Assembly (NCBI GenBank): GCA_964349395.1
Contig: CAYGGA010000004.1
Span: forward strand, 1 to 59,301
From: an uncultured Gammaproteobacteria bacterium
GTDB lineage: Bacteria; Patescibacteriota; Microgenomatia; Woykebacterales; RBG-16-39-9b
Length of the DNA: 59,301 nt
Reading direction: 5' to 3'
Part shown: positions 2,879 through 51,444 of the stretch, one piece after another
Position numbering within the stretch: the stretch's first letter is position 1
Layout: the number at the start of each line of letters is the position of its first letter
The notes under the pieces: model-generated
The model's input: only the letters and a program-made list of their open reading frames with translations
The model's database searches: none
What the model was told of the DNA's origin: nothing
Translations under genes and position numbers: made by a program

Positions 2879-4371
2879 CTTTGATGATCCTGTTTAGGGG
2901 TGACTTTGTACTCCAGTCTTTTCCCTAACAAAAGTCTAGTATGGGCGTCCATCCCTGGCAAGGCCCCAAATAGAAAAGCCGTGACCGGCATGAGTAAGTA
3001 TTGGGCGATTGTGAGTGGCAGCATTCTTTTTTTGAAAGTAACGGGCCGGGGTGGCTTGAGAAGATAATCAACTACAATGATTGATAAAATAAAGACTGTA
3101 CTGATCGTCAGAATAAACCCAGACACTTTAGGCAAATTTTGGCCATAGACGGTATATCTGAAAGCTGGGTTGATAAGTAGGGGCAAAGTGGCTCCGAGAG
3201 TAATAATCCACCAGTTTACTGGCCAAAGAATGTGTTGTTCCAGCACTCTTAAAAATCTAAACAAAAAATTGGTTTTAGAAATCTCTTTTCTTTGTTTGAG
3301 GAACTGTTTAAAAGCGTAAGCAATGTCAGTTACTCCCCAAGCCCATCTACGGTTTTGAGAATACTGAGTCATAAGTGACTGCATGTAAGTTGGGCCTTCA
3401 GCCGCGTCGGCAAAAAGAGGCAAAAAGACGGAGTCGACCTCCACCTCTCCTTTCGAGACAAAGAAACATTTAAAAAAGAGGTGCCAATCTTCAGCGATAA
3501 CGTCTGTGTCCCAAAAACCAGCTTTCTCTACTAGTTTCCAACTGGTGGAGTAGGTGGAATAGTTGAAGTTACTTTTTGGTCTCATCAAATCAGCTACTTG
3601 CTGGATAGAGTAAATAGTGTGAATGACTCGCACCGGCATGGGTACCCGCCAGATATTATTGTAAAAAAGCAGTGCTGCCTGCCAAAAGCGTTGATAAGGA
3701 TGGGCGGAAGTCAAAAATTGATAGCTTAGATTAGAAAAATACTTCGGGTGGATGGCAACATCGGCGTCACAAGAAGTCACCAAAAGATTATCAGTATCAA
3801 TTGTCGTTTCTTTGAGTTTTTCTTGGAGGATGTGAGCACTGAAGGCTAAATTGGAAGATTTACCCGCGACTTCGCCTTCGACCAATGTGTGCTGGGTAAT
3901 CCAAATATTAGCAAAAAAGTGGCCGTATTCTTTTTTAAGTTCCGCTGATTTAGTCAAAAATTCTTCTTCTCGTGCCTCTCCCGCCAGACAGATAGAAATA
4001 TTTTTCGTGGGCATCTCTTGAGCACTTAAAAAAGTGAAGGTTCTTTTCAGAATCGTCATTGGTTCTTTGTAAGTGGGGATAATAATAAGGTGGTGAGTCT
4101 TTTCCATCGGCAGATTTTCGGCTACCCCTTTGTCCCACCACCCGATCTTCGAAGTTTTTTGGATTTTGCGGTAAGCGCGGACTGAATTTACCCCCAAATG
4201 GGCGGCGCGGTAGAAAAAATACAGGTCAAAAATAATGATGAAATTAGCTACGGCAATCGGCCATAAAAAAGAGGCCCACAGAGGTAGTGTCAAAAGCGTC
4301 CAGGAGGCTAAGGCGGGAGTGATTTCCAAAAGGCGGGTAAATTGTCGATCGTATTTTTCAAAAAAGTTCAT
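2875..4371 (-). CDS. Membrane-bound GT2 family glycosyltransferase
   Basis: IPTYKEP, GKSSNL, CDADV (DxD), AEDW and QxRRWAWG motifs of processive GT2; flanking TM segments. Confidence 0.85.
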   Translation of the reverse strand: MNFFEKYDRQFTRLLEITPALASWTLLTLPLWASFLWPIAVANFIIIFDLYFFYRAAHLGVNSVRAYRKIQKTSKIGWWDKGVAENLPMEKTHHLIIIPTYKEPMTILKRTFTFLSAQEMPTKNISICLAGEAREEEFLTKSAELKKEYGHFFANIWITQHTLVEGEVAGKSSNLAFSAHILQEKLKETTIDTDNLLVTSCDADVAIHPKYFSNLSYQFLTSAHPYQRFWQAALLFYNNIWRVPMPVRVIHTIYSIQQVADLMRPKSNFNYSTYSTSWKLVEKAGFWDTDVIAEDWHLFFKCFFVSKGEVEVDSVFLPLFADAAEGPTYMQSLMTQYSQNRRWAWGVTDIAYAFKQFLKQRKEISKTNFLFRFLRVLEQHILWPVNWWIITLGATLPLLINPAFRYTVYGQNLPKVSGFILTISTVFILSIIVVDYLLKPPRPVTFKKRMLPLTIAQYLLMPVTAFLFGALPGMDAHTRLLLGKRLEYKVTPKQDHQS

Positions 4372-11552: not shown

Positions 11553-12440
11553 TCAGAAGGCACGATTGGCTAGCTGGAAAAGTGGACTCAATATTGGGTT
11601 GTAGACTTTTGTAAATGTCCCTACAGAGGTGAGAGTTTCCCCTCTAAACCCCTTTTTAAAATGACTAAATCCTTCCCAACTAGCAGTACTAGGAATTCTA
11701 CTATCTACAACCCCTTCTAAATCCAAGAATTTATACCCTCTTTTTTTAGAATCTTTTATTATCTCCCAAATCAAAGTGTAAGGAGCCAGGAATTCTCTTT
11801 TTTGTGCACTAGACCCAGCATAAAGATAATAGGCAGTTTTATCCCAATAGTAGACCATGGCGGTGGCCAGTGGGTCTTTGTCCAAGTAGGCTATAAAAAT
11901 CTGGGCCTTGTCCTTTTTGGAAAAAATTTCCCATCTTCTAGTTATATTTTTTTCTCCTTCAGTCCAAAATTTATTTCTCTTCGCAGTGGTCAGATAGAGT
12001 GGGTAAAAAGTATCAAAATCTTTACCTACCTCGACTCTCAAACCCGTTTTTTCTCCAAAACGGATGCTATAGCGAGTATCCTTTTCAAACCCCTTTAAAG
12101 TGTCTTCCAAGGGCTTAGAGAGGTCAATGCAGATAGTTTTAGTGGGGGCTAATGCCCATTTATCAGCGACAAAGCCACTCTTTTTAATATCTGGCAAAAT
12201 ATCATCCCCCACTGAAAAATCTGGCTCTAATTTGGCAAATAGGGAATTTTTCTCTTTAAAAAATTGGTTCGCTTGCTCAATATCTAAAGTACTATTAAAT
12301 CTTAAAATTTTGCTCAGGTGAATACCAAAAGTAGAAAAAGTGTAGGCATAGTGGTTTTGGTGTCTGTCTACTGCCCATCCCAAAGATTCCATATATTCAG
12401 CCCACAAGTCAGATTGTCGTAAGTCAGTATTAAGTAGCAT
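11553..12440 (-). CDS. FemABX-family peptidoglycan interpeptide bridge transferase
   Basis: QSDLWAEY...GW start, TRYSIR, YYLYAGS, WEIIKDSKKRGYKFLDLEG, FKKGFRG. Confidence 0.85.
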   Translation of the reverse strand: MLLNTDLRQSDLWAEYMESLGWAVDRHQNHYAYTFSTFGIHLSKILRFNSTLDIEQANQFFKEKNSLFAKLEPDFSVGDDILPDIKKSGFVADKWALAPTKTICIDLSKPLEDTLKGFEKDTRYSIRFGEKTGLRVEVGKDFDTFYPLYLTTAKRNKFWTEGEKNITRRWEIFSKKDKAQIFIAYLDKDPLATAMVYYWDKTAYYLYAGSSAQKREFLAPYTLIWEIIKDSKKRGYKFLDLEGVVDSRIPSTASWEGFSHFKKGFRGETLTSVGTFTKVYNPILSPLFQLANRAF

Positions 12441-16962: not shown

Positions 16963-18195
16963 ATGCAATATGTTGACCTAGGAACTCTAAAAACACCAAA
17001 AAGAAAAAGACCCAAGAAAAAAATCCTCAAAGTTATTTTTCTTTTTCTAGCTTTCTTTATGGGTGTCTATGTTTTGGCTACTCTCTTTTTACCCAGTGGC
17101 AATATTATCCGTGAAGTTTTAAATGCCCCGGGCACTGCTTTAAGTGTTTTAAATGACCCGCTTGCTCATCTCAAAAGCACTAACGGACGAACCAATATTT
17201 TGGTTTTAGGAATCGATAAAAGGAAAGATATACCCTACTCTTATAAAGGAGCTGGGGGTAAGATTTATCACAACGGCTTTTTGAGCGATACGATGCTCGT
17301 AGTGTCAATTGATCTGAAGACCAAAGATGTAGCTATGGTTTCTCTCCCTCGGGATTTGTGGGTAACTTTTGGAGGTAGCAACCACTTACAAGCTCAGTCC
17401 GGCAAAATCAACTCAGTTTACAGTACTGGAACTATGGCTGACTACCCAGGTGGGGGACTAGTTTTAGCTAAAGAAACGGTGAGCAAGTATTTGGGACTTG
17501 ATATTCATTATGGAGCGAGAGTAGATTTCGAGGCTTTTAGAAGAATGATAAATTCGGTGGGTGGGATTGATATCACTGTTGACAAAGCTTTTGAAGATTA
17601 TGAATATCCGATTGAAGGGAAAGAAGAGGCTGATTGTGGGGCTATCTCGGTTTTAAGTCCTGAAGGGACCCCAGTAGCCGTCCCTACCTACAGTTGTCGT
17701 TATACTACCCTGAAGTTTAAAACTGGAGAGACTCATATGGATGGTGAGACTGCTTTAGGGTTTGTTCGTAGTCGACATGGTACAAATGGCGAGGGGAGTG
17801 ATTTTGCGCGGGCGGCGCGGCAGCAAAAAGTCATTGTTGGGTTAAAAAACAAGGTTCTTTCGACGCAAACTTTGCTCGACCCAATAAAAATCGCCAAATT
17901 AGTGAACGATTTTGGTGATACTATCGAAACTGATTTTGATCTCGCGACCCTGCCTGGTCTTTTTAAACTTGGTAAAGAGTTTGATAATGATAAAGTCAGA
18001 ACTGCGGTGTTAAATATTGGGGAAAAAGAACTACTTTTTCACCCTGAAAATGGCCAGTACGGCGGAGCTTATGTCTTGGTCCCCAAAGACCCCACCTGGG
18101 GAGAGGTCAAACTGTACATCAAACAAGTTCTAGCAGGGTTAGCTCCCACTCCCAGTACCACTCCGACTCTTACCCCCACTAAAAAGGCCAGTTGA
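16963..18195 (+). CDS. LCP (LytR-CpsA-Psr) family protein
   Basis: N-terminal TM; NILVLGID, SDTMLVV, SLPRDL, FVRSRH and DFARAARQQ motifs. Confidence 0.92.
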   Translation: MQYVDLGTLKTPKRKRPKKKILKVIFLFLAFFMGVYVLATLFLPSGNIIREVLNAPGTALSVLNDPLAHLKSTNGRTNILVLGIDKRKDIPYSYKGAGGKIYHNGFLSDTMLVVSIDLKTKDVAMVSLPRDLWVTFGGSNHLQAQSGKINSVYSTGTMADYPGGGLVLAKETVSKYLGLDIHYGARVDFEAFRRMINSVGGIDITVDKAFEDYEYPIEGKEEADCGAISVLSPEGTPVAVPTYSCRYTTLKFKTGETHMDGETALGFVRSRHGTNGEGSDFARAARQQKVIVGLKNKVLSTQTLLDPIKIAKLVNDFGDTIETDFDLATLPGLFKLGKEFDNDKVRTAVLNIGEKELLFHPENGQYGGAYVLVPKDPTWGEVKLYIKQVLAGLAPTPSTTPTLTPTKKAS

Positions 18196-18196
18196 G

Positions 18197-18844
18197 ATGT
18201 TAACAGTTTTGCATGGCGACAATCTAATTGCTTCTTACAATCTTCTGCAGAAGTATAAAAAAGACTTTAGTGGTGAAATAGTAACTTTGGAGTCAAAATC
18301 TACTACCCCCAAAGAGTTGGAAGAAGTATTGGGCCAGAGTGCACTTTTTGACACTAGCAAACTGGTGATTTTAGAAGGCAATCCCAAAGCAAATTTGGTA
18401 GAGGCGATAAATGCCTTAGCTGCTTCTTTTGACCTGATTGTCTGGGCAGATAAAAAGATTACCACCACTCCTTTTAAAGGGAAGATTTTAGAACTTAAGG
18501 ACACCACTAATACTAATTTTAAATTTGCAGACAGTTTTACCAGTCGGGATTTGAAAAACTCCTTGCACGATCTACAAACGTTGCTAGATGAAAAAACCCC
18601 CAGCGAACTAATAGTGGGGATTTTAACTAGACAATTGAAACTTATAATGCAAGTTCTTGATGGTGAGGTAAGTAATATCAATCCTTATGTGGTGTCTAAA
18701 ATAAAAATTCATCTGAAGAAGTGGACTCCAGAAAAGGTCAAAAAGGGGTTGAAAGAATTGTTGGTGATTGATCACCATCTCAAAACTGGTAGAATAGACC
18801 CACAGTCAGCACTATTTAATTATCTGACTAAGACTCTTGTATGA
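18197..18844 (+). CDS. DNA polymerase III delta (HolA)-like, short
   Basis: LxxLHGD start, LFxxxKLVILE, C-terminal LLVIDHHLKTG collar motif. Confidence 0.7.
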   Translation: MLTVLHGDNLIASYNLLQKYKKDFSGEIVTLESKSTTPKELEEVLGQSALFDTSKLVILEGNPKANLVEAINALAASFDLIVWADKKITTTPFKGKILELKDTTNTNFKFADSFTSRDLKNSLHDLQTLLDEKTPSELIVGILTRQLKLIMQVLDGEVSNINPYVVSKIKIHLKKWTPEKVKKGLKELLVIDHHLKTGRIDPQSALFNYLTKTLV

Positions 18845-19560
18845 ATGACCCTTACCGTTACGAAAAACACTACCGTTACGATCGTTCCTTCTCTTTTAAA
18901 CCACTAATTGAGACTCTTTTTGCACGTAAAAAATCTTTAGGTGGCTTTACTTTAGTTTTGGGTGGGGTCTTTATTTTAAGTTATTTAACTTTTTACTACT
19001 CAAGTTATATTTTAGCTACCAGTGATTTGGGAACTGTTTCTCCTCTGGTGAAAGCTAAAAATGACTTTACCGACTACTCCCAAGAAGTTTTAGGAAAAAG
19101 TGTGGAAACGTCCCTAGTCTATCAAAATTTTACCTTGTCTATCCCAACTTTAAAGATTGCAGATGCCATCGTGACCACCAATGTGGTCTCTGATAAAAAA
19201 GAAGCTTATATGCCGGTGCTGGAAGAATCAATTGCTCACTATAAAGGCACTTCTTTGCCGGGACAAGAAGGGGATAGTTTTCTTTATGGTCACTCTGTCT
19301 CCCCTAGGTTTTTTAATACCAATGACTACATCACTATTTTTTCTACTCTTCACAAATTAAAAATTGGGGATCAAGTCTCAGTCAAATATGGCGATAAAGA
19401 ATTTAAATATGAAGTCGAAGAGATTGAGATTGTAGATCCTAAAGATTTAGAGGTGTTAGATAAAACTGGTGAAGGAGACAAAACCATGACCCTGATGACT
19501 TGTTCACCTCCTGGAGTACCCCTTAAAAGACTTTTAGTATCTACAAAGTTGGTTGAATAG
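18841..19560 (+). CDS. Sortase
   Basis: N-terminal TM; catalytic His (GHS), Cys (LMTC) and Arg (KRLLV). Confidence 0.92.
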   Translation: MNDPYRYEKHYRYDRSFSFKPLIETLFARKKSLGGFTLVLGGVFILSYLTFYYSSYILATSDLGTVSPLVKAKNDFTDYSQEVLGKSVETSLVYQNFTLSIPTLKIADAIVTTNVVSDKKEAYMPVLEESIAHYKGTSLPGQEGDSFLYGHSVSPRFFNTNDYITIFSTLHKLKIGDQVSVKYGDKEFKYEVEEIEIVDPKDLEVLDKTGEGDKTMTLMTCSPPGVPLKRLLVSTKLVE

Positions 19561-19564
19561 GAAA

Positions 19565-20275
19565 TTAAAACTTCTTAAGGATATTTTTCTCTGCTCTTCT
19601 TTTGGCCCATTTGGGGGCAAAAAGATATGGATTGGCAATAAATAGCCCACCAAAGACAAGGGTGAAAGCAATCGCAATTAGAGTGACAGCCGAGTCATAA
19701 ATCCCCGAGTCAGGTAAAGCTGCCCCACTAGCAGTCGTGCCAGTATCCCCACCCCCAGTAGTAGTGGTTCCTGAGGCGGCTGCAGCAGAGATAGTGTAGC
19801 TGCCATTTTTCAGAGCGGTGAAATTTAAAACATCAGTGCTATCTGTGCTACTGATGACTCGGGAGTCAGAAGTAAAAGTCAGAGTCGAGGTACCAGCCTG
19901 TTTGGCGCGCAGATTTAGAGTGGCCACCAAACCATTGGTCCCAGTGTAACCATTACCGCTAGCTGCCCCAGTAATATGAATCGTGCCATTTAAATTATCC
20001 GGCTCATTTTCTGTAAAAATAGTGGCCACTGACCCAGAAGTGCTTATAGAGAGAACTTCTAAGACATTGGGATCAAAAGTAAGATAGGCTTTGATGGTAT
20101 TAACAGCTTCACCGGCAGTATTTACGCGGATCTCCACTGAGAAAAGGTTATCGACTTTTTTAGCGGCCGTCAGAGGGGATAAGTCTAAAGTAGCATTACC
20201 AACTGCTAGAGCGGGAGCAGCACTAAAAAGGGAAAGTATTAGTGAAAAAAGGACAGCAGTAAGTTTTTTCATCAT
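19565..20275 (-). CDS. Secreted cohesin-domain protein with LPxTG-like (LPDSG) sorting signal
   Basis: Signal peptide ending AxA; cohesin-like beta-sandwich (LTFDPNVLEV, ATLNLRAK); T/G linker; LPDSG-TM-basic tail. Confidence 0.78.
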   Translation of the reverse strand: MMKKLTAVLFSLILSLFSAAPALAVGNATLDLSPLTAAKKVDNLFSVEIRVNTAGEAVNTIKAYLTFDPNVLEVLSISTSGSVATIFTENEPDNLNGTIHITGAASGNGYTGTNGLVATLNLRAKQAGTSTLTFTSDSRVISSTDSTDVLNFTALKNGSYTISAAAASGTTTTGGGDTGTTASGAALPDSGIYDSAVTLIAIAFTLVFGGLFIANPYLFAPKWAKRRAEKNILKKF

Positions 20276-20372
20276 TGGCCTGTTTTACCTAGGCGCAGAA
20301 GTTTTCTTGCAAGAAAACTTCTCTTAATAAATATATCAGTCAGTATACTAAGTAGTCAAGCGGTGCCCTTTA

Positions 20373-21134
20373 CTACCGTTTGGATTTGAATAATCCTTCA
20401 AAGATCTTGAAGTCGGTTTGGTCGACTTGACCGTCTTTATTCAAATCAGCCGGAGAATTGGTTGTTTTGGTACCCATCACTTTAGAAAAAAGGTGCAAAT
20501 CTTGTTCATCTACTTTAGAATCTTTATTCAAATCAGCACTCAAACTAGCAGAGGGGGTACCCTCTTCCTTTGTACCATTGGCCCCTTCCACATTAAAAGT
20601 AGCTGACCTCATTGCCGTGAGAATATTTTGGGCACTGCCTTGCTCAGTAATTTTAGTCTCTCCTTCTACAAACTTTAAAGTTGCCGTTCCGTTTTTCTTA
20701 GCTTGGAGTTTAATAGTTCCAAAAACACCTGCCCCTTTAAAAGGAGTAAAACTATTAATTGATAAGTAAATCTTATTACCCTCAACTTTGTTGGCCAAAA
20801 TTAAAGGTTTATCAAAAAAGCTTCCGGGCTGAGTTTGAACTCCACCAATATCTCGCCTTTGATCAACCACAGAAAAAACGGTGTTATCAAAACTAATCAC
20901 ACTGTCACTACCAACAATACTTTTGCCATTGGTATTGAGAAGAATTTTTATTTCTACTTCTGCTCCTCTGACAATGGTGCCTGAACTTGGATCAAAGGAA
21001 AAAGAAGCTCCTTCGCTGTCGGCCTTTTTTCTTGGGTCTAAATTACCTTGGAGCAATAAAACAGTCAAAGGAATGGCAATAACTAACAAAATAAAAGTAA
21101 TGATTAAGAGTAATTTTCGCCGCGTAATAAGCAT
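20373..21134 (-). CDS. Cohesin plus dockerin domain protein
   Basis: N-terminal TM ending AIPLTV...DPRKKA; cohesin-like domain; duplicated Ca-binding loops DLNKDSKVDEQD and DLNKDGQVDQTD. Confidence 0.82.
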   Translation of the reverse strand: MLITRRKLLLIITFILLVIAIPLTVLLLQGNLDPRKKADSEGASFSFDPSSGTIVRGAEVEIKILLNTNGKSIVGSDSVISFDNTVFSVVDQRRDIGGVQTQPGSFFDKPLILANKVEGNKIYLSINSFTPFKGAGVFGTIKLQAKKNGTATLKFVEGETKITEQGSAQNILTAMRSATFNVEGANGTKEEGTPSASLSADLNKDSKVDEQDLHLFSKVMGTKTTNSPADLNKDGQVDQTDFKIFEGLFKSKR

Positions 21135-21203
21135 AGGTTTTCTTTAAATTAACAAAGCTTGATCTTTTCCTGTGCTCAGATTTAGCATAAAGTTAGTATA
21201 TTT

Positions 21204-21398
21204 CTAATTACTTCTCTTTTCCAATCTTTCCAAAATCTGAGGATTAAAATCAGGACGCAATTCTTGGGTGTACTTGGCGTCGACATTTTCAAACGCGACA
21301 CCGCTTTTTTGCAAACGGTTGATTTGATAAATTCCCCACGATAACAAGGTAATTAGGGTTAAGATTAAAACTACAATTGTTGGTTTTGAAACTTTCAC
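21204..21398 (-). CDS. Small bitopic membrane protein (PilP position)
   Basis: Single N-terminal TM; overlaps the pilO stop. Confidence 0.55.
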   Translation of the reverse strand: MKVSKPTIVVLILTLITLLSWGIYQINRLQKSGVAFENVDAKYTQELRPDFNPQILERLEKRSN

Positions 21399-22027
21399 TC
21401 GGTTACCCCCACTGTTTTTTTGTCTGCAACCTCAGGTGAACCGTAAAAATAAGTTCGCGCTGCCAAAACTAATTTCAATTCTCCGCCAGTCTCTTTTTTA
21501 GCAGTAAAAGTAGCCGACGTAATATCTGTGAAGCGGCTCAGAGTTTCGAGCTGGTTCAACGCTTGTTTTAAGTTTTCAAAACTTCCTGAAAGAGCCAGGT
21601 TGTAATTTACCGGGATGAGTTGGGGCGGCCGTCCTTTTGAACTACTGATAAGTTGGGTTTCGTCCATTGTAATATTGGAAATAACTGCCAAGCTTCCCTG
21701 AAGTTCCGTCTCCAGGTTTTTGAGATACTCGGCGATTGATGCACTATTTGGTAAGGAGGTATCAATGGTAGTCAAACTTTCCTGCAAACTACCTAAATAT
21801 TGTTTGGCACTATCTAAATTGGTGATCTTTTCTGATAAAAGTTTATCAATCTTGCGATTGGCAGTCAGCTGACTGTTTAAGTCTAAAAGATAAAAAACTG
21901 CGGGGTAAATCATCAATACTAAAACAATCAGAGTGACCAAAGTCACCCCCAATCCTAGATAATTTTTTCTCTGCGGAGTGTCAAAATAACTGGCGTAGTT
22001 TTTTACTATTCCTGGGTAAGAAATCAT
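21395..22027 (-). CDS. pilO: Type IV pilus assembly protein PilO-like
   Basis: TM, coiled coil, LP motif, ferredoxin-like SGSFENL...RFTDI. Confidence 0.8.
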   Translation of the reverse strand: MISYPGIVKNYASYFDTPQRKNYLGLGVTLVTLIVLVLMIYPAVFYLLDLNSQLTANRKIDKLLSEKITNLDSAKQYLGSLQESLTTIDTSLPNSASIAEYLKNLETELQGSLAVISNITMDETQLISSSKGRPPQLIPVNYNLALSGSFENLKQALNQLETLSRFTDITSATFTAKKETGGELKLVLAARTYFYGSPEVADKKTVGVTE

Positions 22028-22665
22028 GGGGTACCCCCTTCTGTCTCATTAGATACGGTTGGGGCAGTGGAGCTAGATACTGGAGCTTCGATTCCGGCGC
22101 GCACTATCCCAGGTTTTAGTGTGGCTGAGGCCGTGAAAAGATAAAAAGGTTGGGCAGAAGTCGGCACGGACAGATTGGTAATGTCTAACTCCTGAAATTT
22201 CTGAGAGCTATTTAAGGAAGAAATTAGGGTTTGCAAAGATCCAGGATTCGGTAAACTGCCGGAAATTGTGAGTTTACCTCCTTCAAGCTTAATCTCATCT
22301 AGTAAGGCATCTGAAGGTAAAAGCGTGAGCAAATCAGCATAAAAACTATAGGAATTGGAATGAGAGTCTAAAAGGTCCCCGATTCTCTCTACTTTGGCTT
22401 GATAGTTACGGAAGAGATTCTCACTTGAGGCTTTTGTATCAATAATCGCCTTTTTATCGACAATGGATTCTTTGAGATTGTTTTTATCAATGGTGAATTT
22501 GACACTTAAAGCAAAAATAACCAGGGCGACAATTTCAGTAACAATCACTAAAGTCCGACCTACCCCTAAAAGCCAGTGTACTAAAATGGCTGCACTTCCT
22601 TGCCCATCACTAGTCGGGATGAGATTAATGTCTAAGTTTTGGAGAGTGTGGGCAGTTTTGGCCAT
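22024..22665 (-). CDS. pilN: Type IV pilus assembly protein PilN-like
   Basis: DINLIP (INLLP-type PilM-binding) motif, TM, coiled coil, ferredoxin-like domain. Confidence 0.8.
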   Translation of the reverse strand: MAKTAHTLQNLDINLIPTSDGQGSAAILVHWLLGVGRTLVIVTEIVALVIFALSVKFTIDKNNLKESIVDKKAIIDTKASSENLFRNYQAKVERIGDLLDSHSNSYSFYADLLTLLPSDALLDEIKLEGGKLTISGSLPNPGSLQTLISSLNSSQKFQELDITNLSVPTSAQPFYLFTASATLKPGIVRAGIEAPVSSSTAPTVSNETEGGTP

Positions 22666-22667
22666 GG

Positions 22668-22976
22668 TTAGGATTTACTAGTAACTTTTTTTGCCCTAGG
22701 TTTCTTTTTTACAGGCGCCGCAACTGTCTTTTCCGGCTTTAGTTCTTTGAGCAAATGAGCGAGCCTACTTTTTTGACGAGCTGCTTTATTTTTGTGAATC
22801 AAGTTTTTCTTGGCAGCTCTATCCAGGGCTGACATAGCATTCTGGAAATCCGCACTAGTGCTGGTTTTTTTAGCTTTGGCAATCACGGTTTTGAGATTGG
22901 TTTTCATAGCTAAATTGGACTGAGTTTTCTTAACATCAGCGCGCATTTTTTTAATTGCATTTTTTAGAATCGGCAT
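22668..22976 (-). CDS. rpsT: 30S ribosomal protein S20 with Lys-rich C-terminal extension
   Basis: MPILKNAIK...LDRAAKKNLIHKNKAARQKSRL; ATG at 22976. Confidence 0.93.
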   Translation of the reverse strand: MPILKNAIKKMRADVKKTQSNLAMKTNLKTVIAKAKKTSTSADFQNAMSALDRAAKKNLIHKNKAARQKSRLAHLLKELKPEKTVAAPVKKKPRAKKVTSKS

Positions 22977-23136
22977 CTTTTCCTTTTTTTGAATTTTGAT
23001 AATTGTTTCTAATTGAAGCAAAGCTTGGCTTTTCAAGCGCGTGCTTTGTGTCCGAAGGACCGAGCTTAGCTCCTATTCGGATTTTATCATAATCTCTCGG
23101 TTGTACGCAACCTGATGATGCACTATACTTTTTAGG

Positions 23137-24831
23137 ATGAAGAATCTGCTTAAAAGTAGCACCTCGCTTCTCTTCCGTCGGCAATCTTCCATCCTCTCTG
23201 CGGCTATCATCATGATGATTTTGATGTTGGCCTCCAGAATTTTGGGACTTATCCGTAATTGGGTATTGGCTGGAAGTTTCGGAGCGGGTAAAGAACTAGA
23301 TATTTATAACGCGGCCTTTGTCTTGCCCGACTTACTCGCCAATATTTTGATTACAGGGGCGCTCTCAGTTGCTTTTATTCCCGTCTTTACCACTTTGATT
23401 ACGGATAGAAAAGAAAAACAAGCTTGGGAGATGGCCTCCACACTGATTAATGCCTCAATCTTTATTTATCTGCTTGCTTCCTTCTTTTTTATTATCTTTG
23501 CTCCCTTTTTCGCCCGATTGCTCGTCCCTGGTTTTACCCATGATCAACAAAATGAAGTCTCCAATTTAATGAGAATGCTAATCTTTGCGGAGTTATTTTT
23601 AATTGTTGGGTCTTTTCTCACCTCAGTTTTGCAGAGTTATCACCGGTTTATTGTCTCGGCCATGGCACCTGTAGTCTATAACTTAGGAATTATTCTAGGT
23701 ATCATCTGGCTTAGCCCTCACTTTGGTATTTATGGGGTGGTAGTGGGGGTTATTTTTGGGGCGATTTTGCACCTTTTAATACAACTGCCCATTGTAAAAG
23801 GGCTAGGGTTTCACTACCAAACCGTTCTTAATTTAAAAGATTGGTCAGTCTTGAAGGTAGCTCGACTTTCTCTTCCTAGAGCGGCCGGCGTGGGGTTATC
23901 ACAGCTGGAATGGGTAGTGAGTGTCTTCTTGGCTTCTTACTTATTGTCGGGGTCAGTAACGATTTTAAAATTTGCCTCGGATTTGCAGAATTTCCCGATT
24001 GGTTTGTTTGGTATCACCATCGCGACTGCTTCCTTGCCCACCTTATCGGGTGAATGGGCCACTAATAATATTAATCATTTCAAAGCTACTTTTCTCTCTT
24101 CCCTGCACCAAATTCTTTACTTAGCTGTGCCTCTGAGTGTTATTTTGATGGTGCTGCGTATTCCAGTGGTGCGTCTGGCTTTAGGTAGTAGCGGTAAATT
24201 TACTTGGGAAGATACAGTTTTGACCGCAGTTACTTTGTCTTTTTTTGCCGTTGGTGTTTTTGCCCAAGCTGGTTATCTACTAGTCGCCCGGGCATTTTAT
24301 GCGATGCATGACACCGTCACCCCCTTGCGAGTCTCGGTAGTTTCGCTACTAGTGCATATTCTTTTAAGCACCTTTTTTATTTTTCAACCAACGGTCGCGG
24401 AAGAGTTTAAAGTCGCCTCGTTAGCTATCTCCTCGACCATTACGAGCACTATTGCCTTTCTGCTCGCCCTCTTTATTCTTAGTAAAAGGGTAGGTGGTTT
24501 TGATTCTCAAAGGCTGTATTTACCCGCGGCCAAGATTTTTGTCGCCTCCATCGTGATGGGGATAGTACTCTACTTACCTTTGCATATTCGTTTCTATGAT
24601 CGGTACTTGATTGACTATATTATTGATACCACTAGAACTTTGAATCTCTTTTTCTTAACGGCTAGTGTTGGGGTAGTTGGTTTAGTGGTTTATTTCCTGT
24701 TGACCTGGTGGTTCAAGAGTGAAGAGCTGAAAACCTTCTTAAAATTGCTAAACAAACTGCGCGGTTGGCAGAAAGCCTTTAAACTAGATGAGCCTATCGA
24801 TGGCGCCTCTACTGATAAAAGAGCTGGTTAA
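23137..24831 (+). CDS. murJ: Lipid II flippase MurJ
   Basis: SRILGLIR, AFVLPD, AFIPVF, PIGLFG, RAFYAMHDTVTP; many TM segments. Confidence 0.93.
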   Translation: MKNLLKSSTSLLFRRQSSILSAAIIMMILMLASRILGLIRNWVLAGSFGAGKELDIYNAAFVLPDLLANILITGALSVAFIPVFTTLITDRKEKQAWEMASTLINASIFIYLLASFFFIIFAPFFARLLVPGFTHDQQNEVSNLMRMLIFAELFLIVGSFLTSVLQSYHRFIVSAMAPVVYNLGIILGIIWLSPHFGIYGVVVGVIFGAILHLLIQLPIVKGLGFHYQTVLNLKDWSVLKVARLSLPRAAGVGLSQLEWVVSVFLASYLLSGSVTILKFASDLQNFPIGLFGITIATASLPTLSGEWATNNINHFKATFLSSLHQILYLAVPLSVILMVLRIPVVRLALGSSGKFTWEDTVLTAVTLSFFAVGVFAQAGYLLVARAFYAMHDTVTPLRVSVVSLLVHILLSTFFIFQPTVAEEFKVASLAISSTITSTIAFLLALFILSKRVGGFDSQRLYLPAAKIFVASIVMGIVLYLPLHIRFYDRYLIDYIIDTTRTLNLFFLTASVGVVGLVVYFLLTWWFKSEELKTFLKLLNKLRGWQKAFKLDEPIDGASTDKRAG

Positions 24832-24868: not shown

Positions 24869-25708
24869 GTGGGCAGACCGAAAGTTGCTATTCCTAAAGA
24901 TGAACTCCACAAACTTTATTGGGAAGAGAAATTATCTCCGATAAAGATTGCTGTTTTATATAAGTGCAACCCAGTAACAGTCAGAACGCGAATTCGCGAA
25001 CACGGTTTAGCCACCCGTTCAAAGTCCATGGCGCAGATGCGTTATGAAAAGTATGATTTTTCAGGAGACGAAATTGAGAAAGCATATCTAATTGGTTTTA
25101 GATTAGGAGACCTAAACGTTTATCAAACTAGTGAAAGGTCGGAGCTAATCGTGGTGCGTTGTAATACCACACAACAGGCGCAAGTAAAACTAATAACAGA
25201 TCTCTTTTCTTCATACGGAAAGGTAACTCTTTCGCGAGGAAGTTATAGTACTAACATAAACTGTTTTTTAAATACCTCGTTTTCGTTCTTATTACCGAAG
25301 AGTACCGAGATACCAGAGTGGTTGGGACTAAATAAACTAACCTCTGCCGCTTTTACAGCAGGCTACATTGATGCAGAAGGAAATTTTATTCTAAACCAAG
25401 GAAAAGCAAGATTAAAAATTGATTCTTACGATAAAGAAGTCCTTCATTGGATATCTAACTGGTTGAATAAACAAGGTATAAACGTTAAAATTCGACGCAT
25501 TGCAAAACTTGGTGACATACAAAAAGGATCGATGTTGTTTAATAAAGATCTTTGGAGATTAAATATTAACGACGCCCCATCACTATTAAGGTTTATAAGT
25601 ATAGTGAAACCGTTTATTAAACACGAGACACGTTTAAAACATATTATGATTTGTGAAGATAATATAAAGCAGAGAACTCTTAAAAGAACAATTTACAATG
25701 CTAGATAA
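24869..25708 (+). mobile_element. Free-standing LAGLIDADG homing endonuclease with N-terminal HTH
   Basis: Motifs AYLIGFRLGDL and AFTAGYIDAEG; N-terminal HTH (LSPIKIAVLYKCNPVTVRTRI); overlaps the lepA start by 11 nt. Confidence 0.82.
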
Positions 25709-44125: not shown

Positions 44126-46273
44126 ATGCCAAAAAGAGTTCGAGTCAGACGAAACAGGAGTCCCTTTAAATTCAGACTGAAAAAGAAAACTGCTCAGGGT
44201 ATCTTTGCTGTGGTCTTGATAGCTACCTCCCTTCTTTTTTTCCTTTCCTACTTTCTTCAGGGTGAAGTCGCCAGTCAAATCAAAACTACGCTATTTGACA
44301 CTTTTGGTTTGGGGGCGGTTTTGCTCCCGGTACTACTACTAGTATCCGGGTTGATGTTAACTCGTCTTAAAATAAAATTCCTTCAAGCCAATCTGCTTAT
44401 TGGTTTAGCCTTGATTATAATTTCCTTAATTACCTTGATGGCGCCACTTTCCACCGAAGCCGGTGGGGTTGTGGGTCTCACTATCTGGGAAAATCTTACG
44501 TCGGTGATTGGTGGGCCTTTTTCTTCCCTTTTCTTAACCGCCACCTTTATCTTAGGTTTAATTATCTTTTTTAACACTCCGATTGAAGATGTCTTCGCCG
44601 CCGTTGGTAAAAGTGTTTCGTACTTAGGTCTTTCGGTGGCCCAAGTCTTTGAAAGAAAAGAAAAAGAGGCTGCTTTTGCCCAGAAACCAAAACTAGATAT
44701 CAAGGTGGCCCAGGAGCCAGCCCCTTCTCGTATTGATAAACCAGTAACTGCGGGAGGGGACATACCGGCTCTGGGGACTGGGATAGTGAGCAACCTACCC
44801 GGTAGCTCTCAAGTTTGGAATTACCCACCACTTGAGCTTTTAAGTGAAAATTCTGGTAGTAAAGCGGCTCGGGGAGATTTAAAAAATAGCGCGGCGATTA
44901 TTGAAAAAACATTAGAAAGTTTTGGTATCCAGGCTCGAGTGGTAGAAGTAAACTCCGGTCCCTCAGTTACCCAATACGCACTAGAAATTTCTTTGGGGAC
45001 CAAACTAAATAAAATTACCTCTCTTGCTGACAATATTGCCCTTTCTTTAGCAGCTCCGACTGGGACCGTCCGAATCGAAGCCCCAATTCCTGGGAAATCT
45101 CTAGTTGGGATTGAGGTACCAAATCTCAGCCCAGAAACGGTCATGCTTAAATCTCTTTTGGCCTCCGCGACTATGCAGAAAAACAAAAGCAAACTGGCTT
45201 TAGCCTTAGGACTAGATGTTTCTGGTTCTCCGGTGGTTGGCGATTTAGCCAAAATGCCCCACCTTTTGATTGCCGGGTCCACGGGATCTGGTAAAAGTGT
45301 GGCGGTGAATGGTTTTATCGCGAATCTTTTGTTTAGAACTACTCCGACTGAAGTAAAATTAATTTTGGTGGATCCAAAGATTGTAGAACTCTCTCAGTGG
45401 AACGGTATCCCTCATCTGCTTACTCCCGTGATAAATGAACCAGAAAAAGTACTATCTGCGCTTAAATGGGCGACGGCGGAGATGGACAGGCGGTATAAAC
45501 TTTTTGCCTCAATTGGGGCAAGAAATATCGATTCTTACAATGAGATGAGTGGTTTCCAGGCTCTGCCATATATTGTTATTATTTTGGACGAATTAGCAGA
45601 TTTGATGATGTTTGCTCCAGTCGAGATCGAAGATAGCGTGGTTCGTCTGGCCCAAATGGCTCGGGCAGTGGGGCTTCACCTTGTACTGGCTACCCAGAGA
45701 CCAAGTGTCGATGTTATCACCGGTTTGATCAAAGCTAATATTCCTTCTCGCATTGCTTTTAATGTTGTTTCCCAAATTGATTCTCGAGTTATTATTGACC
45801 AAGTTGGAGCTGAAAAACTACTTGGTAAAGGGGATATGCTGTATGTTCCACCAGATGCTTCTAAACCCTATCGTATCCAGGGAGTTTACGTGTCTGACAA
45901 TGAAATTAATAAACTAATCGACTTTTTGAAGAAAAGTGGGGTGGAGCCTCAATACACTGAAGAGATTGTCACCATGCCCATTTCCAAACTATCCAGAGGG
46001 GGGAGTATTGGTGCCAGTGGAGATGATAAAGATGAACTTTTTGAGGAAGCAGTCAAAGTCATTGTGCAGTATGACCGCGCCTCCGCTTCCCTTTTGCAAA
46101 GACGCTTGCGAGTCGGCTATGCCCGTGCCGCCAGGTTGCTTGACGAGCTAGAAAGTGCGGGGGTGGTAGGGGTCGCGGATGGCAGTAAAGCTCGTGACGT
46201 GTTAGTTCGGGATGTAAATCGAGCTTTGGGTGGAAGTCCAGCGGAGGGAGGACTGCCCCCTGAAATGGGATGA
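44126..46273 (+). CDS. ftsK: DNA translocase FtsK/SpoIIIE
   Basis: N-terminal TMs; PHLLIAGSTGSGKS, IILDELADLM, ATQRPSVDV; gamma domain LLQRRLRVGYARAARL. Confidence 0.96.
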   Translation: MPKRVRVRRNRSPFKFRLKKKTAQGIFAVVLIATSLLFFLSYFLQGEVASQIKTTLFDTFGLGAVLLPVLLLVSGLMLTRLKIKFLQANLLIGLALIIISLITLMAPLSTEAGGVVGLTIWENLTSVIGGPFSSLFLTATFILGLIIFFNTPIEDVFAAVGKSVSYLGLSVAQVFERKEKEAAFAQKPKLDIKVAQEPAPSRIDKPVTAGGDIPALGTGIVSNLPGSSQVWNYPPLELLSENSGSKAARGDLKNSAAIIEKTLESFGIQARVVEVNSGPSVTQYALEISLGTKLNKITSLADNIALSLAAPTGTVRIEAPIPGKSLVGIEVPNLSPETVMLKSLLASATMQKNKSKLALALGLDVSGSPVVGDLAKMPHLLIAGSTGSGKSVAVNGFIANLLFRTTPTEVKLILVDPKIVELSQWNGIPHLLTPVINEPEKVLSALKWATAEMDRRYKLFASIGARNIDSYNEMSGFQALPYIVIILDELADLMMFAPVEIEDSVVRLAQMARAVGLHLVLATQRPSVDVITGLIKANIPSRIAFNVVSQIDSRVIIDQVGAEKLLGKGDMLYVPPDASKPYRIQGVYVSDNEINKLIDFLKKSGVEPQYTEEIVTMPISKLSRGGSIGASGDDKDELFEEAVKVIVQYDRASASLLQRRLRVGYARAARLLDELESAGVVGVADGSKARDVLVRDVNRALGGSPAEGGLPPEMG

Positions 46274-47190
46274 GGACTGTTGGCGAAATATTAAGTGAAA
46301 AAAGAAATAAACTGGGCCTCAGTCTAGAAGAAGTTGAGAAAAAGACAAAAATCCGGCGCAATCTTTTAGAATCAATTGAAAAAGGGGAATGGGAAAAATT
46401 ACCTCCGCCTACTTTTACCAAAGGGTTTATCAGCAATTATGGTGAGTTTTTAGGGTTAAACTCCCCTGAGTTGCTCGCTTTCTTTCGACGCGAGTATGAC
46501 GAGAAGAAAAATCCTAAACTTACTACAATGGCCATGGTCAACCACCCTCGGTTTGCTGTCACTTCTACCACCGTCGTCGTGGGTTTTATCTCTTTAGTAC
46601 TACTTTTTGTTTTTGGCTATCTTTTTATCCAATATCGCTCTTTCACTGGTGCCCCGCTGCTAGATATCTCCGAACCTAAAAACAACTTAAAAACTTCGGT
46701 TTCTGATGTCTTGGTAGTTGGAAGAACCTACTCGGATGCTACTCTAAAAATCAATGGTCAAGATGTCCAGCTTTCCCCTGGGGGAGCGTTTTCAGTGGCG
46801 GTAGCTCTAGTAGATGGGGTAAATGAATTGATTATCACCTCTTCGAATCGGTTTGGTAAAATCGCGACTGTGAAAAGAACCGTGGTGGTCGAAATTCCCC
46901 CCGCGGCGATCACACAATCTCCCACGGCTACCTCCTCAGCTAGTCAGGCTGACCCCCTAACATTAGTCTTAAAGATTGGTCCGCAGAGTAGTTGGGTGCA
47001 CGTGGAGGTGGATGGAAATCTAAATTTTGAGGGGGTTTTGGTGTCAGGAAATACCAAGACTTTTGAAGCCAAAGAAAGTATTAAAATCACTACTGGTAAT
47101 GCGGGGAGTACTCAAGTCAGTGTGAATGGTGGGGCAGAGGAAATTTTGGGTAGTACTGGGCAGCGAGTAGAGAAAGAGTTTAGGAAATAA
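46270..47190 (+). CDS. RodZ-like protein (HTH, TM, Ig-like and DUF4115-like domains)
   Basis: TVGEIL...GLSLEEV...TKIR...IEKG...KGFISNY; single TM; C-terminal SWVHVEVDG...GNAG; downstream of ftsK. Confidence 0.85.
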   Translation: MRTVGEILSEKRNKLGLSLEEVEKKTKIRRNLLESIEKGEWEKLPPPTFTKGFISNYGEFLGLNSPELLAFFRREYDEKKNPKLTTMAMVNHPRFAVTSTTVVVGFISLVLLFVFGYLFIQYRSFTGAPLLDISEPKNNLKTSVSDVLVVGRTYSDATLKINGQDVQLSPGGAFSVAVALVDGVNELIITSSNRFGKIATVKRTVVVEIPPAAITQSPTATSSASQADPLTLVLKIGPQSSWVHVEVDGNLNFEGVLVSGNTKTFEAKESIKITTGNAGSTQVSVNGGAEEILGSTGQRVEKEFRK

Positions 47191-50215: not shown

Positions 50216-50428
50216 ATGAGTGCCTACCGACTTGCTTTTATAGGTGTAAAAAAGTATCATCAAGAGAGCCTTGAGGCTCAAGTACTTGCCCATATGAAAT
50301 TTACTTTAAAGAACTTTCTTCCACAAAAAGAGGATCCTGATTTTATATTCAGCTTGCTGAAAACTCTGATTTTTAGGTCAGGGTTGCAAGCAAATGAATA
50401 CATACTCCCCGGAGATTACGGTAGATGA
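50216..50428 (+). CDS. Hypothetical 70-aa protein coupled to the ftsA-like gene
   Basis: ATGA stop/start overlap with 50425. Confidence 0.45.
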   Translation: MSAYRLAFIGVKKYHQESLEAQVLAHMKFTLKNFLPQKEDPDFIFSLLKTLIFRSGLQANEYILPGDYGR

Positions 50429-51444
50429 CCTCAATTTTCAGCAACGTCATTAAACTTTTGAAGAACCCCCGGTCCACAGGACCGGAGGAGTTTATTGTTA
50501 TTGATATTGGTCTGCAAAGACTTACTGCCGCAGTTTTTAAACCATCGGCCGTGGGTCCTACTATCGTTCCCAAACTCATGGGTTTGAGCCGTAAAACAGG
50601 TTTAGATGAAGAGAATGTTTTTGCCTTGACTAGTGATGCTCTTAAAACAGTAGAATCAATCGTCATGCACCTACCCAAGAAAGTCTTGTTGGGTGTCAGT
50701 GGGTTGGGTTCCAAAACAGCCACCGTGGTGGCTAGAGTCCAGAGAGCAGACAGCACTAAACCAATAACCGAGTATGAGCTGCAAGAAATTTTGGAAAAAA
50801 GTGCCCAAAGCCAGACCCTCTTCTCTGTCGAAGAACAAAAAGACTACAAATTATTTTTCTCCTCCGTGGTGTGGGCCAATATTGATGGTGCCAAGATAAA
50901 TAATCCCGTAGGAAGTCGTGGCAGTAGCATGGAAGTAAGCTGTTTTCACGCCTACAAAAAAACTAATGAGCTAGACAATTGGGACCGTCAACTCCAAGAC
51001 ATGGGGCTGGAGATCAAAAAAATCATCCCCGCTGCTTTTGCTTTAAGTAAGATTATTATTAGAAATGGGATTCAAAGTCTGATTCTGATCCGAATTTCCG
51101 AAGAAAAAACTGAGGTGAGTTTTATCACTGACACCAATATTGCCGAGATTGCCACCTTTGATTTAGGTTATGAGAACCTAGATCTGTGGACCCAAGCTAT
51201 TTCCATCCTTTTTACCGAGGTAAATTTGCCTAAAGGGCTGCCAGATGTGATTTGGGTTTATCCTGAGGGAAAAGAAGAGGTTGGGGAAAGAGTCCGAACC
51301 AATTTGCTAGAAATAAACTGGACGAGAGACTTTAAAAGAGAAATTCCCAATGTGAAGCTTGGGCAGAAGCCCGAAGGGTTTAGTGTGGAAGATACCCCGC
51401 TGATCTCACTAGGGATGGAGGGAATAAGTAGTGGACTCGCTTAA
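50425..51444 (+). CDS. FtsA-like actin-fold protein, degenerate ATP motifs
   Basis: IVIDIG phosphate-1 remnant; FtsA 1C-like segment IDGAKINNPVG; phosphate-2 replaced by RISEEKT. Confidence 0.7.
   Translation: MTSIFSNVIKLLKNPRSTGPEEFIVIDIGLQRLTAAVFKPSAVGPTIVPKLMGLSRKTGLDEENVFALTSDALKTVESIVMHLPKKVLLGVSGLGSKTATVVARVQRADSTKPITEYELQEILEKSAQSQTLFSVEEQKDYKLFFSSVVWANIDGAKINNPVGSRGSSMEVSCFHAYKKTNELDNWDRQLQDMGLEIKKIIPAAFALSKIIIRNGIQSLILIRISEEKTEVSFITDTNIAEIATFDLGYENLDLWTQAISILFTEVNLPKGLPDVIWVYPEGKEEVGERVRTNLLEINWTRDFKREIPNVKLGQKPEGFSVEDTPLISLGMEGISSGLA

Follow-up and report, generated by a model that had tools for sequence, protein, structure and literature searches.

The 59,301-nt window analysed here, contig C4 (CAYGGA010000004.1) of a Patescibacteria genome (GCA_964349395.1; 952,772 bp, 35 contigs, estimated completeness 100%), carries the genes of two cohesin proteins, one also bearing a dockerin and the other a sortase-type sorting signal, directly behind an orphan pair of pilN- and pilO-like genes (pilN' and pilO') and a gene for a small transmembrane (TM) protein. 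We propose, and give the proposal an even chance of being right, that the two proteins form a minimal, non-cellulosomal cohesin-dockerin plug and socket, set in the variable wall-anchor slot of an operon whose pilN'-pilO'-small-TM part is conserved throughout the class (Microgenomatia-type), and that they act there as a membrane-to-wall tether or display joint. Patescibacteria, or Candidate Phyla Radiation (CPR) bacteria, live attached to other cells and rely on their envelope and pili; they account for a large part of bacterial diversity, and the construction of their envelope is little understood. Within one CPR class, the cohesin-dockerin connector, familiar mainly from cellulosomes, is a widespread component of the envelope (cohesin-family matches in 49 of 61 related genomes), and its presence at the wall-anchor position of an orphan PilN/PilO operon offers a concrete hypothesis for how such a platform could be tied to the wall without an outer membrane or secretin.

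Layout of the locus

The genes form a minus-strand run of six that faces a sortase gene on the plus strand:

22668..23036, minus strand: rpsT (ribosomal protein S20; PF01649, E = 1.3e-14), first gene of the run
22024..22665, minus strand: PilN' (orphan PilN-like bitopic membrane protein, 213 aa; PF05137, 25.1 bits, cut-off 22.8)
22615..22632, minus strand: DINLIP motif of PilN' (residues 12-17), N-terminal and of the PilM-binding type
21395..22027, minus strand: PilO' (orphan PilO-like protein, 210 aa; PF04350, 35.4 bits, cut-off 22)
21204..21398, minus strand: 64-aa membrane protein with a single TM pass, the third product conserved in the module
20373..21134, minus strand: TM-cohesin-dockerin protein (253 aa; cohesin identified from model and Foldseek search, Dockerin_1 35.4 bits), hereafter the adaptor
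21042-21122, minus strand: signal-anchor helix of the adaptor (residues 5-31)
20586-21008, minus strand: cohesin of the adaptor (residues 43-183)
20385-20537, minus strand: dockerin of the adaptor (residues 200-250)
20330..20359, minus strand: promoter-like site upstream of the next gene (TTGACT-18-TATATT with TG extension)
20297..20322, no strand: 26-bp perfect palindrome, between the promoter-like site and the next start codon
19565..20275, minus strand: signal-cohesin-LPDSG protein (236 aa; PF00963, 41 bits, E = 2.7e-10), hereafter the LPDSG protein
20201-20275, minus strand: signal peptide of the LPDSG protein
19829-20167, minus strand: cohesin of the LPDSG protein (residues 37-149)
19703-19717, minus strand: LPDSG motif
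19568-19702, minus strand: TM helix and basic tail of the LPDSG protein
18841..19560, plus strand: sortase (239 aa; PF04203, E = 7e-24, 84 bits), convergent with the run

Only 2 bp separate rpsT from pilN', and the pilN'/pilO' and pilO'/small-TM pairs overlap by 4 bp each; the adaptor and LPDSG genes are preceded by gaps of 69 and 97 bp, respectively. The stop codons of the LPDSG gene and the sortase gene lie 4 bp apart. An earlier note on this DNA, made from the sequence alone, had described the run and the convergent sortase, and all of these genes are present at the positions it gave. It had also remarked that no pilM precedes pilN'; that place is occupied by rpsT.

Cohesins and dockerin

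The cohesins and the dockerin of the locus are genuine. The LPDSG protein exceeds the Pfam cohesin cut-off of 24.1 bits in the window and scores 43.7 bits in the genome-wide scan; its matches among PDB sequences are not significant, though the two highest are cohesins. By sequence, the cohesin of the adaptor stays below the Pfam cut-off (20.5 bits). The AlphaFold2 (AF2) model of the adaptor, built with 12 homologues, has a mean predicted local distance difference test (pLDDT) score of 78.6, with values of 86-94 over most of the sandwich, and in a Foldseek search of this model against the PDB the top 41 matches were all cohesins. The best of them is CohA2 of C. acetobutylicum (6kgf_C, E = 6.7e-11, TM-score 0.79), and the sixth is a non-cellulosomal cohesin of Archaeoglobus fulgidus (2xdh).

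The C-terminal 55 residues of the adaptor match Dockerin_1 (PF00404) well above its cut-off of 22.9 bits, and a profile of this domain matches solved dockerins (4fl4_A, E = 1.7e-10). Type I dockerins consist of two repeats of ~22 residues, each with a Ca2+ loop carrying Asp or Asn at positions 1, 3, 5, 9 and 12, followed by a helix. Both loops are complete in the adaptor (DLNKDSKVDEQD, residues 201-212, and DLNKDGQVDQTD, residues 230-241), and the AF2 model places dockerin helices at residues 210-219 and 239-252. Seven loop residues (D201, D205, D212, D230, N232, D234 and D241) are invariant in 12 homologues, and N203 and D238 are nearly so. Pfam, the AF2 model with its Foldseek matches and the conserved Ca2+ loops agree with the cohesin and dockerin assignments of the earlier note.

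Within the first 40 residues of the adaptor is an N-terminal anchor motif that reads IPLTVLLLQGNLDPRKKA. Many cohesin and dockerin proteins of the class (L038, L060, L061 and L062) have this motif, which consists of a helix ending in (I/V)P(L/A)(T/G)V, a short spacer and Q(E/D)(I/L)R(K/S)(K/R)A. The motif is found in only one protein of the window genome and could be a dedicated processing or sorting signal.

Sorting signal, sortase and dockerin partners

The LPDSG protein has a canonical sorting signal, as the earlier note had read it, next to a catalytically intact sortase. It starts with an AxA-type signal peptide, MMKKLTAVLFSLILSLFSAAPALA, with V following the predicted cut, and ends with ALPDSG, a 30-residue hydrophobic stretch (IYDSAVTLIAIAFTLVFGGLFIANPYLFAP) and a basic tail (KWAKRRAEKNILKKF). 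Ser replaces Thr in the motif, and the form across homologues is LPx(S/A)G; ALPx(S/A)G and the TM helix are kept in all 10 homologues compared, eight of which also have the long basic tail. The sortase contains the catalytic residues His151, Cys221 (in TLMTC) and Arg230. It reaches the generic model TIGR01076 but no class-specific NCBIfam cut-off, its best class-specific score being 72 bits for the pilin-polymerising class C (cut-off 160). A sortase occupies the same position in L006, G019 and G017, and L006 also contains a FemAB-family gene like the one in the window; the peptidoglycan cross-bridge, to which FemAB enzymes relate, is the usual sortase nucleophile. The adjacency of the two genes suggests that this sortase acts on the LPDSG protein. 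Across the genome, two sortases are clear (C4 and C9) and a third is weak (C2), and the sorting signals of the five candidate substrates read LPNTG in three cases, LPDTG in one and LPDSG in one.

Genome-wide scans recovered two cohesins, both at this locus. Listing all dockerin proteins of the genome, a check that the earlier note had proposed, gave three: the adaptor, a 110-aa protein on contig C21 that consists of a membrane helix and a dockerin only (50.9 bits), and an exported 460-aa protein on C11 in which the C-terminal dockerin is the sole recognisable Pfam domain. No carbohydrate-active domain was detected in any of these three proteins, and the system is therefore not a cellulosome. 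With two cohesins and three dockerins, a small chain of wall socket, adaptor and cargo is plausible. Together with the sortase they make up a minimal, fully enumerable network whose reconstitution in vitro is conceivable.

On C21 (9990-14173), the gene for the 110-aa TM-dockerin protein lies beside genes for Asn/Thr/Ser-rich repeat surface proteins of 173, 299 (with LPNTG) and 757 aa. The cohesin system may have additional clients, or else neighbours, in these proteins.

The orphan pilN'-pilO' module

A complete type IV pilus cluster is present on contig C2 and comprises pilB, pilT, pilC, pilD, seven prepilins and pilM-pilN-pilO; second copies of pilB, pilT, pilC, pilD or pilM were not found in the genome. 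In BLASTP comparisons, the match between PilN' and the PilN of this cluster is limited to the DINL(I/L)P motif (DINLLP in the cluster), and PilO' is 20% identical to its counterpart (E = 1e-5). Since so little is common to the two sets, the window genes are distant orphan paralogs.

The module was compared across 61 genomes of the same class, and 25 loci around PilN' were sampled for synteny. The PilN' profile has one strong match each in 55 of the 61 genomes, on which the co-location counts below are based. In 60 of the 61, pilM is single-copy and remote from pilN'; where the canonical pilN is caught as a weaker second match of the profile, it adjoins pilM. Outside the class, the profile gives weak matches in about one third of Patescibacteria genomes. 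The order rpsT-pilN'-pilO'-small TM is found in 25 of 25 loci, and murJ stands beside the module in 22 of them, being unseen in the short contigs L006 and L007 and in the cut locus L065. In the whole family and order, LCP and holA are conserved as neighbours of the module. The 64-aa membrane protein, which matches no Pfam or NCBIfam family, likewise has an orthologue after pilO' in all 25 loci, with a conserved tail, L(N/D)PxLD.

At the N-terminus of PilN', ININL(L/I/M)P is kept with few variants across 25 aligned orthologues. The INL(L/I)P-type motif of PilN is established as the PilM-binding peptide, and its retention makes it plausible that the orphan pair can use the cell's single PilM. 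An FtsA-like gene in the window (50425-51444) was considered as the missing pilM and rejected, as it matches no Pfam family and a PilM_2 scan matches C2 only. Behind this open reading frame (339 aa) comes the gene of a 576-aa membrane protein that matches Baseplate_J weakly (both within 50425-53161).

The genes around the run are as follows, with the FemAB, LCP and MurJ genes named in the earlier note recovered by Pfam:

23137..24831, plus strand: murJ, divergent from rpsT (PF03023, E = 1.6e-80)
18197..18844, plus strand: holA, co-directional with the sortase (PF21694, E = 2.3e-12)
16963..18195, plus strand: LCP, co-directional with the sortase (PF03816, E = 2e-35)
11553..12440, minus strand: FemAB-family transferase (PF02388, E = 5e-25)

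The variable slot and the cohesin cassette

Variability is found in the genes behind the small TM gene. In other families, the first gene of this slot encodes a protein of ~450 aa with a signal or TM segment, FN3 (PAP_N-like), CarboxypepD_reg and Big_13 domains and an (I/L/V)PxxG sorting signal; the second and third encode a ~400-aa membrane protein and a 150-260-aa protein with a signal and a sorting signal. Cohesin proteins occupy the slot in the window's genus (three loci) and in G019, G020 and G022. Three families (G000; G019 and G020; G022) have cohesin genes within the pilN' operon. The ~450-aa slot proteins of G052, G050 and G025 were tried as further cohesins and rejected, since Pfam assigns FN3, CarboxypepD_reg and Big_13 domains to them. 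A profile search of the window genome gave no homologue of the FN3 slot protein.

Elsewhere in the genomes of the class, cohesins recur in a cassette of three genes, which encode a TM-cohesin protein (~190 aa), a signal-cohesin-sorting-signal protein (~220 aa) and a TM-FN3 protein with a short dockerin-like tail (180-250 aa). Large dockerin proteins with subtilase, GH39-like, CARDB, fn3 or TIG domains are often encoded directly upstream of the TM-cohesin, so that the dockerin-bearing proteins of relatives include proteases and adhesin-like proteins. In relatives, large dockerin proteins neighbour TM-cohesins and dockerin-tailed membrane proteins neighbour sortase-signal cohesins, a pattern that fits the chain of wall socket, adaptor and cargo. 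Some cassettes (L033 and L041) contain only the sortase-signal cohesin and the TM-FN3-dockerin-tail gene, pointing to the same pairing of the dockerin tail with the sortase-signal cohesin.

The two settings share a stalk. A profile of the operon FN3 protein (positions ~4-144) matches the cassette TM-FN3 proteins, six of them with E-values of 1e-18 to 1e-29 and two further ones with 7e-11 and 3.5e-8, and Pfam confirms an FN3/PAP_N domain in the cassette proteins. The tail of these proteins, FGTNxPxYDLNKDGxVNxxD, is very similar to repeat two of the window dockerin. This homology suggests that the same stalk is fixed either directly, by a sorting signal of its own, or through a dockerin-like tail and a cohesin. 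The window unites at one site a membrane-anchored beta-sandwich protein with a dockerin, a sortase-signal cohesin and a sortase, all behind pilN'-pilO'-small TM. The two versions of the stalk and this combination form our main comparative argument for pairing the dockerin with the wall-anchored cohesin and for placing both in the service of the PilN'/PilO' platform.

The tie to type IV pili drawn in the earlier note is not supported in that form. The genome's only pilB, pilT, pilC, pilD, pilM and pilin genes lie on C2 together with a pilN and pilO of their own, the window pair belongs to a class-wide module of orphan paralogs beside rpsT and murJ, the module is followed in most relatives by FN3/Ig proteins or by nothing rather than by cohesins, and most cohesin cassettes of the class are located elsewhere in the genome.

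Linkage of the cohesin genes to the module

The window arrangement is not a chance one: it recurs in relatives with proteins that are 57-85% identical. Of 55 genomes, 9 have a cohesin no more than 5 kb from pilN', compared with 1.4-2.8 expected under random placement (P between 1e-5 and 2e-3, in a calculation that ignores phylogenetic non-independence). The count had been 11 with an iterated hidden Markov model that spanned the signal peptide, PT-rich linker and sorting signal and over-called cohesins. Four of the nine are directly downstream on the same strand (G000, G019, G020 and G022), and five are across murJ (G041, G035, G047, G040 and G050). In close relatives, the gaps from the small TM gene through the cohesin-dockerin gene to the second cohesin gene are 15-60 bp, with 15-18 bp directly after the small TM gene, as would fit a single operon.

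The promoter-like site upstream of the LPDSG gene has 10 of 12 consensus matches. Its two elements, GCTTGACT and TGATATATT, separated by 17 or 18 nt, are invariant in the three loci of the genus (the window, L006 and L007), the proteins of which are 68-71% identical. In L006 (~2540-2570) and L007 (~3235-3270), the ATG follows 9-14 nt after the -10 element, a spacing that would give a leaderless or nearly leaderless mRNA. The palindrome of the window (AGAAGTTTTCTTG/CAAGAAAACTTCT) is unique in the genome and belongs to a ~45-bp insertion not present in L006 and L007; it might serve as an operator or form a hairpin in the 5' untranslated region.

Proposed mechanism

The 236-aa protein would be exported by its Sec signal peptide, after which the adjacent sortase would cut it at LPDS|G and join it to the peptidoglycan cross-bridge, leaving a cohesin socket fixed to the wall. 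The 253-aa adaptor, held in the membrane by its N-terminal signal-anchor helix, could then plug its C-terminal Ca2+-dockerin into this socket and so bridge membrane and wall; the gene neighbourhoods of relatives suggest this pairing of dockerin and cohesin. The adaptor's own cohesin would remain free for the 460-aa protein encoded on C11 or the 110-aa TM-dockerin protein encoded on C21. Because both genes stand directly behind pilN'-pilO'-small TM, the bridge would most likely serve this membrane platform, which might engage PilM through the PilN' motif. Gene order and spacing suggest co-transcription with the module, and the bridge may be in physical contact with PilN'/PilO' or the pilus machine.

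In an extended version, which we offer as speculation and think unlikely, the single type IV pilus motor would have a second base-plate, made of PilN', PilO' and the 64-aa protein and reached by way of PilM. An interchangeable strut would strap this base-plate to the peptidoglycan of a cell that has a wall and lacks an outer membrane. This arrangement would be a monoderm substitute for PilP-PilQ, and here the strut would be a Ca2+-dependent, reversible joint between the membrane-anchored cohesin-dockerin protein and the sortase-fixed cohesin. To our knowledge, no pilus machine with such a joint has been described. If the link to PilM is true, it bears on how monoderm-like CPR cells pass type IV pili through the wall and brace them there.

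Alternative explanations

Several observations weigh against a membrane-to-wall tether that serves the module. Cohesins are present in 49 of the 61 relatives and within 5 kb of pilN' in just nine, so that the cassette evidently works apart from the module. In seven sister genera of the window's family, the last gene of the operon is the small TM gene or one for a TM-FN3 stump of 167-188 aa, convergent holA-LCP comes next, and neither a cohesin nor a sortase is present there; a wall tether is thus not obligatory for the module, and the linkage of the two is facultative. The conserved promoter-like element suggests that the LPDSG gene probably also has its own start and may be regulated separately. 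The dockerin at the cassette tails is half-length and below the Pfam cut-off in three of five proteins scanned, and the AF2 model of the LPDSG protein is poor (pLDDT 54), which leaves its sequence as the evidence for that cohesin. The genomes sampled within the family and order are not phylogenetically independent, and the window sequence was matched in DNA metagenomes only. Much of this would be expected if the cohesin genes were an independent, self-contained and sortase-anchored cassette that displays dockerin-bearing proteins on the cell surface, landed in an envelope neighbourhood (murJ, LCP, sortase and FemAB) and has no functional link to PilN'/PilO', an explanation that we consider a real possibility, if short of probable. 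Most cohesin cassettes of the class are indeed far from pilN', several stand beside murJ instead (those of the five genomes with a cohesin across murJ, and that of G043 at rpsT-murJ), and the three-gene cassette recurs with large dockerin proteins of its own. In G043, the cassette (L040, G043:C4:60800-68166) lies by rpsT-murJ and pilN' (G043:C4:46577-47074) ~16 kb away, so the neighbourhood of murJ may attract the cassette in its own right, whatever the place of pilN'. An independent cassette would, however, leave the enrichment of cohesins near pilN' to be explained, along with the four that are directly downstream on the same strand and the gaps of only 15-18 bp after the small TM gene in relatives. 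Moreover, the proteins encoded in the operon slot always share one topology, as beta-sandwich proteins anchored in the membrane or the wall, and the operon FN3 protein is homologous to the TM-FN3-dockerin-tail protein of the cassette.

The earlier note had envisaged an outward, chain-forming adhesion scaffold on the type IV pilus, in which a head-to-tail polymer holds adhesins for host attachment. This draws on the combination of a cohesin and a dockerin in one protein, which is common in relatives, some of whose proteins have up to three cohesin-profile matches, as well as on the PilM-binding motif kept by PilN'. A dockerin-domain protein is also essential in a cultivated Saccharibacterium (Southlakia), the only related CPR item that our literature search returned (PMC10633639). 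The N-terminal membrane helix of the adaptor, however, looks uncleaved and is followed by IPLTV and GNLDxRK(K)A motifs in close homologues; a membrane-tethered adaptor excludes outward extension of a chain. The genome has just two other dockerin proteins, neither with a recognisable adhesin domain, and the window pilN'-pilO' pair lies outside the pilus cluster, so that we think such a scaffold improbable. More improbable still, to the point that we give it hardly any credence, is a sortase-polymerised pilus of the Gram-positive type or a pilus of the Pam type, with the LPDSG protein as a pilin joined by sortase or by donor-strand exchange. The sortase has weak similarity to class C and CPR bacteria do build pili from beta-sandwich proteins (PMC13278184), but the sortase falls well short of the class C cut-off, and the closest fold and sequence family of the LPDSG protein is cohesin. 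The Pam pili of Candidatus Mycosynbacter amalyticus consist of two-domain pilins of 38-55 kDa, with a nine-strand N-domain, a linker strand and a truncated Ig C-domain, that assemble by donor-strand exchange with PapD-like chaperones (PMC13278184). They resemble the window locus as CPR-specific surface structures made of beta-sandwich proteins, with helix-anchored accessory proteins and no trans-envelope machine, and are set apart from it by their described architecture (PMC13278184). The LPDSG protein is a single cohesin of ~140 residues with no Pam-type second domain or linker strand, and there are no chaperone-like genes at the locus. A Pam identity was rejected, by comparison with this described architecture, for both single-domain cohesin proteins (236 and 253 aa), in which no homology or like arrangement was seen.

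Comparison with known systems

We read the locus as a variant of the ScaE-type sortase-anchored cohesin that is minimal, non-cellulolytic and directed from membrane to wall, and it stands in an orphan PilN/PilO operon. ScaE is an established wall socket of Ruminococcus flavefaciens and R. champanellensis, and Sca2 of R. bromii is a predicted one; each combines a single cohesin with a signal peptide and an LPXTG-type signal at the C-terminus, and is thought to be fixed by sortase as a socket for adaptor or cargo proteins with dockerins (PMC4611034). In contrast to these, the window protein belongs to a 0.95-Mb CPR genome with no carbohydrate-active domain detected in its dockerin proteins, has LPDSG (LPx(S/A)G in homologues) as its motif, is only 236 aa long and lacks an X module. 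Its gene stands behind an orphan pilN-pilO pair and beside a sortase, and its predicted partner is anchored in the membrane.

Cohesin and dockerin also meet in one chain in ScaA of Acetivibrio cellulolyticus and AF2375 of Archaeoglobus fulgidus. Sca1/Amy4 of R. bromii likewise has a cohesin followed by a dockerin (PMC4611034). The adaptor resembles such proteins in its non-cellulosomal context and in its order of domains, a cohesin first and then, at the C-terminus, a type-I-like dockerin that has two Ca2+ loops. It differs in its N-terminal signal-anchor, its short length and its lack of an enzyme or carbohydrate-binding module, and it would bridge membrane and wall rather than extend a scaffold.

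Likeness to the PilM-PilN-PilO-PilP(-PilQ) complex of Pseudomonas, Myxococcus and Thermus is found in the PilN and PilO Pfam matches above cut-off and the INLLP-type motif, and the gene order of N, O, small membrane protein and beta-sandwich protein echoes N-O-P-Q. Unlike that complex, the module has no adjacent pilM, lies away from the pilus cluster and is joined to the rpsT-murJ synteny; it has no secretin and no detectable PilP homology, and for the proteins encoded downstream, the anchor in the wall would be provided by sortase or by cohesin and dockerin. Closest by position are the FN3/Ig genes 'g4-g6' of other families (loci L056-L067), which occupy the same slot and encode an N-terminal helix or signal, a beta-sandwich and a C-terminal sortase-type signal. 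Joined to a dockerin-like tail, their N-terminal TM-FN3 part is met again next to sortase-signal cohesins. In the window genome, by contrast, the FN3/Ig domains are absent; cohesin replaces FN3, and fixation to the wall would be indirect, through dockerin and cohesin.

Full-text literature searches returned no cohesin-dockerin system linked to pilN/pilO or sortase in CPR bacteria, and no account in which cohesin-dockerin systems are general to the envelope of a CPR class or belong to an orphan pilN-pilO operon.

Further observations in the window

The window otherwise holds housekeeping genes typical of small genomes, and tRNA and Rfam scans of it gave no matches. Between murJ and lepA is a free-standing LAGLIDADG-type gene (24869-25708), which overlaps the start of lepA. 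Further on, a RodZ-like protein (46270-47190; HTH_25 and RodZ_C) contains an inserted Glucodextran_B-like beta domain. Finally, a 985-aa protein (55280-58237) combines an LCAT/lipase-type alpha/beta-hydrolase domain with Ig-like C-terminal repeats and is likely a surface lipase or acyltransferase.

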